Made by a program: the position numbers and the translations under genes. A model generated the notes under the pieces. That model made no database searches and was not told the origin of the DNA. It saw nothing but the letters and a program-made list of their open reading frames with translations. Positions 13,827-14,498 of a stretch of 64,000 bases of DNA are shown here, piece by piece (within the stretch, counting starts at the first letter, position 1; each line of letters begins with the position of its first letter). The DNA lies in sequence record OR924452. One strand, 5' to 3'. The stretch comes from Escherichia phage 241.

Positions 13827-14261
13827 TCACACCCATTGTCTGGTACGTATTTCTTGAATAACTTCGTCAAACAAGAAATCCTTTAACCATTTTACTCCCA
13901 CCACCTGATTATTCTTAGGCGGCGTTACCCTCAATCTAACATTCTTTGGATATTGTTTAGGATCCACCAAGACTTCTGTGCAAGTCTCAGGATGATAGCC
14001 ATAATACAAGTCAACAACATCCGAATGGTAAACCGATTTACATTTACCATTGTAATAATTCGTGGAACTGGCATCAAGAATAAAGGATGCCTTATCTTGT
14101 AAAAGGGTTTTGCATTGTACTTTGTACAAGCGCCCTTCTATATCCAAAACAAAATCATACGGCGCATTATCACCGAAAGGTTGAGAAACTGTTAGCCCCT
14201 GCTCAGTGCATTTGAACAAGAACCTAGTCTCACCTATCATACCCCGTTGTTTCGAATTCAA
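13827..14261 (-). CDS. Hypothetical protein embedded in the RNA island (possible small nuclease; weak)
   Basis: 144-aa ORF; motifs GMIGETRF and YDFVLDIEGRLYKVQCK loosely resemble PD-(D/E)XK nucleases. Confidence 0.45.
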   Translation of the reverse strand: MNSKQRGMIGETRFLFKCTEQGLTVSQPFGDNAPYDFVLDIEGRLYKVQCKTLLQDKASFILDASSTNYYNGKCKSVYHSDVVDLYYGYHPETCTEVLVDPKQYPKNVRLRVTPPKNNQVVGVKWLKDFLFDEVIQEIRTRQWV

Positions 14262-14273
14262 ATTATTCCGCCT

Positions 14274-14498
14274 TTATCCGTGCTTGTTCGCTTCAATTGC
14301 CCTTAATTGAGCATCAGCGTCAGCTTTGGTGTCATGTGTCCCAAGAACCTTCGTCTTGGTGTGGTCAAGGACAACCCACTTGTCGCCTCGCTTTTCAACA
14401 AACTCAACAATCTCTTTGTTGTCAGTAGCGAGGCCATCCCACTCAGCAAGAAACTCACCGAACGTTTTCATCATACTCACCAATCGTTTATTGAACAA
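14274..14498 (-). CDS. Hypothetical small protein
   Basis: 74-aa ORF directly upstream of and co-oriented with the 144-aa ORF. Confidence 0.4.
   Translation of the reverse strand: MFNKRLVSMMKTFGEFLAEWDGLATDNKEIVEFVEKRGDKWVVLDHTKTKVLGTHDTKADADAQLRAIEANKHG

Follow-up and report, generated by a model that had tools for sequence, protein, structure and literature searches.

Within the 64,000-nucleotide stretch of Escherichia phage 241 (Phi241; sequence record OR924452) that was analysed here, and which is referred to below as the window, the minus-strand open reading frame (ORF) at 13827..14261 is probably a free-standing homing endonuclease gene (HEG) of the PD-(D/E)XK I-Ssp6803I family (PF11645), residing in a Kuttervirus tRNA island and comparable to T4 SegB. 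The cassette bearing this gene replaces, in this phage, the tRNA-Asn gene and the adjacent ~110–135-nt structured-RNA element of the closest relatives. Two minus-strand ORFs were listed by program at the locus, 13827..14261 (144 aa) and 14274..14498 (74 aa), and an initial annotation had described them as a pair set between tRNA-Tyr and tRNA-Met and had drawn a parallel with T4-like phages. Both ORFs are real and lie on the same strand with these two tRNAs on either side, as the ORF list, ARAGORN and Rfam agree, and a T4-like origin of the phage was ruled out, the locus grouping with Kuttervirus. A 5-kb query around the locus retrieved 310 phage records, nearly all of them from Ackermannviridae (Kuttervirus, Taipeivirus and Limestonevirus), with Salmonella phage PS5 as the closest match (97%), and on these sequence matches the phage is a Kuttervirus (Ackermannviridae).

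Family, Fold and Active Site of the Nuclease

The 144-aa protein matched the Pfam family PF11645 (PDDEXK_5) with an E-value of 1.6e-25 and 90.2 bits against a cut-off of 26.1, and residues 1–131 were aligned on profile positions 1–137 of 138, i.e., over the full length of the family. The initial annotation had spoken of a loosely nuclease-like motif, of which the nuclease part stands and the word "loosely" does not, since the family match is full-length. The protein was also recovered by phrog_5018 (E 2e-33) and by the PADLOC "HEase" (homing endonuclease) model (E 7.9e-8), and its sole sequence match in the PDB was 2OST, the structure of I-Ssp6803I, at an E-value of 4.5e-6 with the single sequence and of 2.7e-16 with a 13-sequence profile. 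The AlphaFold2 model of the protein (predicted local distance difference test score, pLDDT, 85.6; predicted template modelling score, pTM, 0.82) gave four top structural matches in Foldseek that were all 2OST chains (2ost_A: E 7.7e-10, TMq 0.77, root-mean-square deviation 3.1, 149 columns), and the next matches, archaeal Hjc resolvases and SPARDA nuclease domains, were far weaker. The nuclease idea was to have been given up had no nuclease-like fold been predicted, and the fold of 2OST was found.

Residues E11, D36, Q49 and K51 were invariant in the alignment of 13 homologues. The D, Q and K of the D...QxK core, here D36, Q49 and K51, which from general knowledge of the PD-(D/E)XK motif we take to be catalytic, are identical in the 2OST alignment, whereas E11, invariant within the phage clade and included in helix 1 of the model (residues 3–20), stands opposite a Gln there. 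By sequence and model, the ORF clearly encodes a full-length I-Ssp6803I-family PD-(D/E)XK endonuclease of predicted activity. PF11645 as a whole is large, with 2,283 clusters (50% identity) at E<=1e-3, although only two at E<=1e-30. The family is listed as "ssp6803i" in a survey of the PD-(D/E)XK superfamily (PMC3424549) and occurs in cyanobacterial tRNA-fMet introns (PMC13011429); its sole characterised member, I-Ssp6803I, is a DNA homing endonuclease (2OST; PMC3384342), a tetramer that cuts a long DNA target of 17–23 bp site-specifically (PMC3384342; PMC3424549).

Replacement of tRNA-Asn and the Adjacent Structured Element

The features on which the comparison with relatives depends are as follows:

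13827..14261, minus strand: PF11645 I-Ssp6803I-like PD-(D/E)XK endonuclease gene (predicted), free-standing, 144 aa with TTG start (Pfam, PDB profile, AlphaFold2/Foldseek)
13843..14273, minus strand: inserted cassette relative to nuclease-free genomes (alignments with SenM-2, SeKF_64, PS5, SPTD1 and FKP10)
14262..14273, minus strand: 12-nt spacer from the small-ORF stop to the TTG start, sequence AGGCGGAATAAT followed by T
13731..13842, minus strand: 112-bp tract 3' of the nuclease ORF, without counterpart in the PS5 backbone, 99% identity to Det7-like phages (SenM-2)

The window is identical to PS5 over 13179–13730 and nearly identical from 14274 on, and the interval between these points is replaced, measuring 543 bp in the window (13731–14273) and 185 bp in PS5, where it consists of tRNA-Asn, starting 1 nt past the stop of the small ORF, and a 108-nt element. 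The flanks of the cassette are 99–100% identical to the nuclease-free closest relatives. In the Det7-like phages SenM-2 (Salmonella phage vB_SenM-2) and Phi_10 and in SeKF_64, none of which has the nuclease gene, a ~135-nt tRNA-like element comes after tRNA-Asn; it is closed by an acceptor-like stem, GTCGGGT/GCCCGAC, and includes the T-arm-like hairpin GGGGTTTGAATCCCC. The sequence of these phages rejoins the window at 13842. At the carrier loci of SPTD1, PM10, FKP10 and cp19, the nuclease gene begins 21–23 bp after tRNA-Asn and displaces the structured element, with the same 3' junction. The 5' recombination junction of the window (14273|14274) lies between the two ORFs, and the 3' junction (13843|13842) falls within the last codons of the nuclease ORF, so the stop codon of the nuclease is resident DNA and the C-terminal tails of the alleles therefore differ (...RTRQWV-stop, ...MKLWV-stop and a 25-residue read-through). 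No copy of tRNA-Asn or of either structured element was found by BLAST anywhere in the 64-kb window, in which ARAGORN and Rfam detected three tRNAs (Ile, Tyr and Met) and no others; exactly these three are given in the Phi241 genome announcement (PMC11320906). The replacement of tRNA-Asn by the cassette explains why three tRNAs are present here and four in the nearest relatives.

The 112-bp tract is Det7-like and not PS5-like, accompanies the nuclease ORF in a PS5-like backbone and, judging from these alignments, probably came in together with the cassette. At the other junction, two single-nucleotide polymorphisms lay within 37 bp and were followed by 410 identical bases, and tract and polymorphisms together, as seen in this one genome, are weakly but consistently suggestive of gene conversion. 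In 12700–17600, neither the Rfam gathering threshold nor E<=1 yielded a group I intron, and no tRNA-Asn halves were found by BLAST; an intron or a split tRNA-Asn around the ORF was thereby ruled out, and the nuclease gene is free-standing rather than intron-encoded.

Some further observations were made on the replaced segment. The structured element is unannotated and lies directly 3' of tRNA-Asn in SenM-2 (3261–3395; positions in other phages are given, here and below, in coordinates of the retrieved locus sequences) and also in Phi_10 and SeKF_64, and its PS5 counterpart is the 108-nt element at 4233–4340; its minimum-free-energy fold contains three internal hairpins (-37 kcal/mol), ARAGORN makes no call on it, and there is some likeness to stable RNAs C and D, which belong to the tRNA cluster of T4. 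The tRNA-Asn of PS5 (4341–4416) has a C for the near-universal U just 5' of the anticodon, reading CCGTTAA, versus CTGTTAA in all other relatives read, which may be a sequencing error or may denote an impaired tRNA. Two anticodon-stem variants of tRNA-Asn with compensatory changes circulate among the relatives. A cleavage target was sought by comparing the tRNA-Asn variants of carriers and non-carriers, and no consistent difference emerged, the nuclease-free SeKF_64 sharing the anticodon-stem variant of the carriers.

Distribution and Selection

The nuclease gene was detected by tblastn in eight Ackermannviridae records, representing seven phages of Kuttervirus and Taipeivirus, with protein identities of 80–83%. 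As 310–347 records matched the locus itself, carriers amount to 8 of ~340 (~2%), always at a fixed locus. Presence and absence across related phages, which the initial annotation had proposed to look at, thus proved sporadic for the nuclease. The free-standing HEG pattern was found, namely a presence/absence polymorphism at one locus between conserved genes with sharp mosaic junctions, and the suspected mobile-element behaviour is upheld by this fixed, sporadically occupied site.

The coding sequence of the nuclease showed 73.7% identity with the SPTD1 allele, with 82, 93 and 46% identity at codon positions 1, 2 and 3, respectively; synonymous sites were saturated (pS ~0.8) and dN was 0.15. 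Between the same genomes, identity was 90–97% in the adjacent small ORF and in the non-coding DNA further downstream, compared with 74% for the nuclease coding sequence. The codon-position pattern and the far more similar flanks point to strong purifying selection and to an old, diverged allele that was swapped into a conserved locus.

Start Codon and Spacer

The first codon of the nuclease ORF is the TTG at 14261, whereas the GenBank entry of Phi241 has a 137-aa "hypothetical protein" from an internal ATG, 100% identical to the product of the 144-aa ORF. Every homologue keeps N-terminal residues 1–7 (MNSKQRG; MN[ST]KQRG), and among the six codons 2–7 four differ from the SPTD1 allele by synonymous changes only. 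The TTG start (144 aa) is preferred over the internal ATG because of this conserved N-terminus, the synonymous changes at four codons and the position of helix 1 with E11 at residues 3–20, and the public annotation probably leaves out seven conserved N-terminal residues, as these alignments suggest. SPTD1-type alleles carry AGGAAC-AC-ATG at the start, and the window is without those 14 nt and has TTG in place of ATG. A ribosome-binding-like AAGG, supplied by the 12-nt spacer, is located 9 nt 5' of the TTG, and a non-ATG start is seen elsewhere in PF11645, with GTG at one relative (locus L047). The spacer resembles the G1 of tRNA-Asn joined to its discriminator-CCA end (GCCA) and to the AATAAT of SPTD1, and from this likeness it may be the scar of a tRNA-Asn deletion in which positions 2–72 were lost.

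Viral Relatives in tRNA Arrays

Every fetchable relative outside Ackermannviridae was entered in a context census, in which 24 viral loci were represented by 8 isolates, 10 IMG/VR loci and 6 loci of metagenomic proteins (L025 and L026 being near-duplicates). Of the 24 viral PF11645 loci, 23 are set in tRNA arrays on the same strand, and for 21 the nearest tRNA is at most 250 bp away. All eight isolate loci have same-strand tRNAs 0–170 bp away, and several of the ORFs abut or overlap a tRNA; these isolates are phi-pp2 (Straboviridae), My1, SelmaRatti and River4 (Demerecviridae), UPEC06 (Vequintavirinae), J2-1 (Ounavirinae), EFP01 (Herelleviridae) and the archaeal virus HSTV-4. Same-strand tRNA arrays likewise surround 9 of the 10 IMG/VR loci and all 6 metagenomic loci. 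The control set of cellular genomes (Haloferax, Acidobacteriota) had a tRNA nearby at only 1 of 18 PF11645 loci; cellular relatives thus did not furnish the extra support for a tRNA link that was sought from them, and the link is limited to the viral and intron-borne members. No account of phage PF11645 genes in tRNA arrays, nor of tRNA-Asn replacement, was found in the literature searched.

A broader reading, which is held tentatively and with clearly less confidence than the assignment of the Phi241 gene, is that viral PF11645 members are a clade whose homing endonucleases have specialised on the DNA of tRNA genes and drive the gain and loss of viral tRNAs, the deletions of tRNA-Asn in Phi241 and of tRNA-Tyr in one metagenomic contig being direct footprints of cutting. 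The hairpin-coding arms of tRNA genes would offer ready pseudo-palindromes to a multimeric PD-(D/E)XK enzyme, and tRNA arrays would be its near-exclusive niche in bacterial and archaeal viruses.

That contig (Logan ERR12350022, 1160 bp; L009) bears tandem PF11645 genes, an SPTD1-like copy at 3–287 and a 49%-identical paralogue at 632–1060, and the tRNA-Tyr expected between them (window 13506–13583) is cleanly gone along with part of the next spacer. In two further, unrelated lineages the PF11645 gene follows tRNA-Asn, at 2 bp in HSTV-4 (1393–1929) and at 23 bp in L047 (1904–2405), as it does at 21–23 bp in Kuttervirus and Taipeivirus; this may be due to chance or to some preference for the DNA 3' of tRNA-Asn. 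A conserved module of tRNA-Asn, spacer and HEG across lineages was considered and rejected: the adjacency recurs (SPTD1 type, HSTV-4 and L047), but the tRNA and spacer sequences are unrelated.

Proposed Mechanism and Alternative Explanations

Under the homing-endonuclease explanation, the nuclease gene would be transcribed with the island from the late-promoter motif 5' of the small ORF and translated from the TTG 12 nt past the small-ORF stop. During mixed infection with a nuclease-free relative, the enzyme would cut a long, probably pseudo-palindromic site in or beside the tRNA-Asn/small-RNA segment of the rival, and recombinational repair off the HEG-bearing genome would copy the HEG and adjacent markers into that rival, as with T4 SegB, while the HEG-bearing genome, having lost the target segment, would itself be immune. 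Several points weigh against this explanation. The Phi241 allele of the nuclease is known from a single genome, and the evidence for co-conversion is thin, with two polymorphisms within 37 bp of one junction. tRNA-Asn does not consistently separate HEG-bearing from HEG-free genomes, as SeKF_64 illustrates, so the target is not inferable from it, and cleavage, target site and homing are sequence-based predictions both for this protein and for all phage PF11645 members. Endonuclease genes in general tend to accumulate in tRNA arrays, HNH genes being present in the same island of relatives, and location alone is therefore no proof that tRNA genes are targeted. Lastly, two anciently diverged alleles are intact at one locus, whereas decay is the more usual fate of a purely selfish element, and the gene may therefore benefit the phage.

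This last point leads to the strongest of the alternatives, a domesticated or beneficial nuclease that excludes competitors by cutting their tRNA islands, or that remodels or amplifies the tRNA array against tRNA-targeting host defences. The very low dN/dS, the saturated synonymous sites and the two alleles intact at the same locus suggest long-term maintenance, SegB drives segmental tRNA-gene amplification against the Septu defence (PMC13096335), and Klebsiella phage FKP10 has an exact 1001-bp tandem duplication (380–2380; 100% identical) that contains tRNA-Met, tRNA-Arg and two small ORFs and ends ~120 bp 5' of its HEG. However, the round length and perfect identity of this duplication may betray an assembly artefact, carriers make up only ~2% of related phages, and the arrival of the nuclease here accompanies a loss of tRNA and no gain; a beneficial role is thus regarded as unlikely, although its mechanism overlaps with that of a homing endonuclease and does not exclude it. 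The same signs of selection speak against an inactive HEG relic deprived of its ATG and Shine-Dalgarno sequence. Such decay would agree with the loss, relative to SPTD1-type alleles, of 14 nt including AGGA and with the TTG start, but the frame is full-length, every invariant residue is present, purifying selection extends to codons 2–7, AAGG stands 9 nt 5' of the TTG and a relative starts with GTG, which together render a relic improbable.

The initial annotation had also entertained an RNA-processing cassette, and its two components were weighed separately. A role of the nuclease in processing the tRNA or structured-RNA precursors of the island would suit a gene set tightly among same-strand tRNA genes, here and in relatives, and some PD-(D/E)XK superfamily members act on RNA, according to the abstract of PMC3424549. 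The sole characterised family member is nevertheless a DNA homing endonuclease (2OST; PMC3384342), a processing factor would be expected to be conserved with its substrates, whereas the adjacent RNA genes were deleted instead, and the tRNA islands of ~98% of relatives work without the gene; nothing points to RNA processing, and we consider it very improbable. Still harder to credit is a single mobile two-gene cassette, for which it can be said that the ORFs are adjacent, 12 nt apart, on the same strand and probably co-transcribed. The small ORF, however, is found at 94–100% identity and in the same place in the nuclease-free closest relatives PS5 and STML-13-1, where it adjoins tRNA-Asn, and it is present in 425 phage records, Straboviridae among them; the recombination junction 14273|14274 runs between the two ORFs, one or two tRNA genes intervene between them in SPTD1, PM10, FKP10 and cp19, and the nuclease family occurs elsewhere without the small ORF. 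As the small ORF occurs with or without the nuclease, the two do not form a cassette, and the idea of a pair was rejected.

A free-standing homing endonuclease hence remains the preferred explanation, by which a "hypothetical protein" of the biocontrol phage Phi241 becomes a specific homing-endonuclease prediction. Free-standing viral members make up a sizeable branch of the sole structurally known PD-(D/E)XK homing endonuclease family, and they reside almost exclusively in tRNA arrays. With this branch, the way of life of SegB would be found in a second nuclease fold, independent of the first, and large phages would have a candidate agent for the turnover of their tRNA repertoires. Should their targets prove to be long sites within tRNA genes, such enzymes might also hold practical interest as rare cutters.

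The Neighbouring Small ORF and Other Features of the Island

The remaining features of the locus are the following:

13069–13144: tRNA-Ile (ARAGORN and Rfam)
13499–13582, minus strand: tRNA-Tyr, downstream flank of the locus (ARAGORN and Rfam)
14274..14474, minus strand: resident small ORF, 66 aa (65 aa from the ATG at 14471) (phrog_3684, homologue lengths)
14505..14511, minus strand: CTAAATA, predicted Kuttervirus late gene promoter (annotated at the homologous position in the SPTD1 record)
14592–14667, minus strand: tRNA-Met, upstream flank of the locus (ARAGORN and Rfam)

The size of 144 aa originally given for the first ORF was retained, while the 74 aa of the second are an artefact of a mechanical first-TTG rule and are replaced by 65–66 aa. 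The 29 homologues of the small ORF range from 43 to 108 aa, mostly 45–68 aa, relatives annotate it as 65–66 aa from ATG, and CTAAATA (14511->14505) ends 7 nt before the TTG of the 74-aa call and just precedes both candidate ATGs, at 14474 and 14471; the homologue lengths, the annotation of relatives and the placing of CTAAATA just before the TTG therefore indicate a true product of 65–66 aa that starts at one of these two ATGs. By analogy with the SPTD1 annotation, from which its function is inferred, CTAAATA probably drives both the small ORF and the nuclease gene.

The small ORF matched phrog_3684 (E 3e-27), and its homologues share the core motif RG-KWVVLD-x4-KVLGTH-TK-x2-A-x2-QLRAIEANK. 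Its AlphaFold2 model (pLDDT 77) has an N-terminal helix followed by a beta-beta-beta-alpha arrangement, for which Foldseek gave no structural neighbour in the PDB. Searches of Pfam, PHROGs, NCBIfam, PADLOC and a PDB profile, with AlphaFold2 and Foldseek, yielded as to function just a sub-threshold likeness to DUF2188 (PF09954), at 14.6 bits versus a gathering score of 22, so that the ORF is not a member of this family; sub-threshold matches in 13 of 23 homologues (best E 7e-4) amount to a resemblance only. The Det7-like phages have an unrelated 47-aa ORF in the slot of the small ORF, and a comparison with what occupies the corresponding slot in phi-pp2 and in SenM-2 showed no homology. From its sequence distribution the small ORF is a resident, modular small phage gene outside the mobile unit and no partner of the nuclease.

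The segments 13583–13826 and 14668 to ~17400 contain no credible ORF, yet they are strongly conserved across Kuttervirus. The former belongs to a region (13583–13842) with 99% identity to SenM-2, in which 13603–13649 resembles N4-like phages (KP8 and PhAPEC5, 87–90%) and 13671–13732 resembles the tRNA-Lys region of T5-like phages (~82%). Rfam detected in the island only weak acceptor/T-arm-like tmRNA fragments, at 12919–12933 and 15985–15997. Between tRNA-Met and the late-promoter motif, the window and PS5 share an 80-bp segment (14512–14591) that SPTD1 and SenM-2 lack, a pattern by which it is another indel module of the tRNA island. HNH homing-endonuclease genes occupy other slots of the island in SeKF_64 (2508–2921), Phi_10 (4172–4648) and SenM-2 (5355–5876), one of them overlapping the end of tRNA-Met, and as judged from these genomes the Kuttervirus tRNA island generally serves endonuclease genes as a landing site.

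Comparison with Known Systems

The Phi241 nuclease is like I-Ssp6803I (2OST), which comes from a Synechocystis tRNA-fMet group I intron, in Pfam family, size (144 versus 151 aa), fold (TMq 0.77) and D...QxK core, and both are tied to tRNA genes. They differ in that I-Ssp6803I is intron-encoded, whereas the Phi241 gene is free-standing between genes and virus-borne, with ~20% identity between the proteins and an invariant Glu (E11) in helix 1 of the phage clade where the 2OST alignment has Gln. The archaeal Hjc resolvase, the second-best structural neighbour (Foldseek E ~2e-3, TMq 0.4–0.5), shares a minimal PD-(D/E)XK core and a Glu in helix 1, but the match is far weaker than that to 2OST and has no sequence-level counterpart, and the sporadic, cassette-like distribution of the Phi241 nuclease is not expected of such a resolvase. 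The HNH genes of SeKF_64, Phi_10, SenM-2 and STP07 are, like the Phi241 nuclease, sporadic endonuclease ORFs in the same island, although they belong to another nuclease family, occupy other insertion points and are known from annotation.

The parallel initially drawn with endonuclease genes in T4 tRNA regions holds, and SegB is its documented case, a GIY-YIG enzyme encoded in the T4 tRNA cluster that recognises the DNA of tRNA T-arms, drives the T4 tRNA region into progeny and is itself inherited at nearly 100% when T4 is crossed with T2L (PMC2330249); SegB homologues are enriched near tRNAs (PMC13096335). Both SegB and the Phi241 nuclease are (the latter by prediction) products of free-standing HEGs that lie inside phage tRNA clusters and are absent from close relatives, and the presence of either correlates with differences in tRNA content. 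The two are unrelated in fold and catalytic mechanism, GIY-YIG for SegB and PD-(D/E)XK for the Phi241 nuclease, and the activity, 27-bp site and homing of SegB were shown by experiment, whereas the Phi241 nuclease is known here from its sequence and model. SegB, moreover, spreads neighbouring tRNA genes, whereas the Phi241 cassette coincides with the loss of tRNA-Asn.

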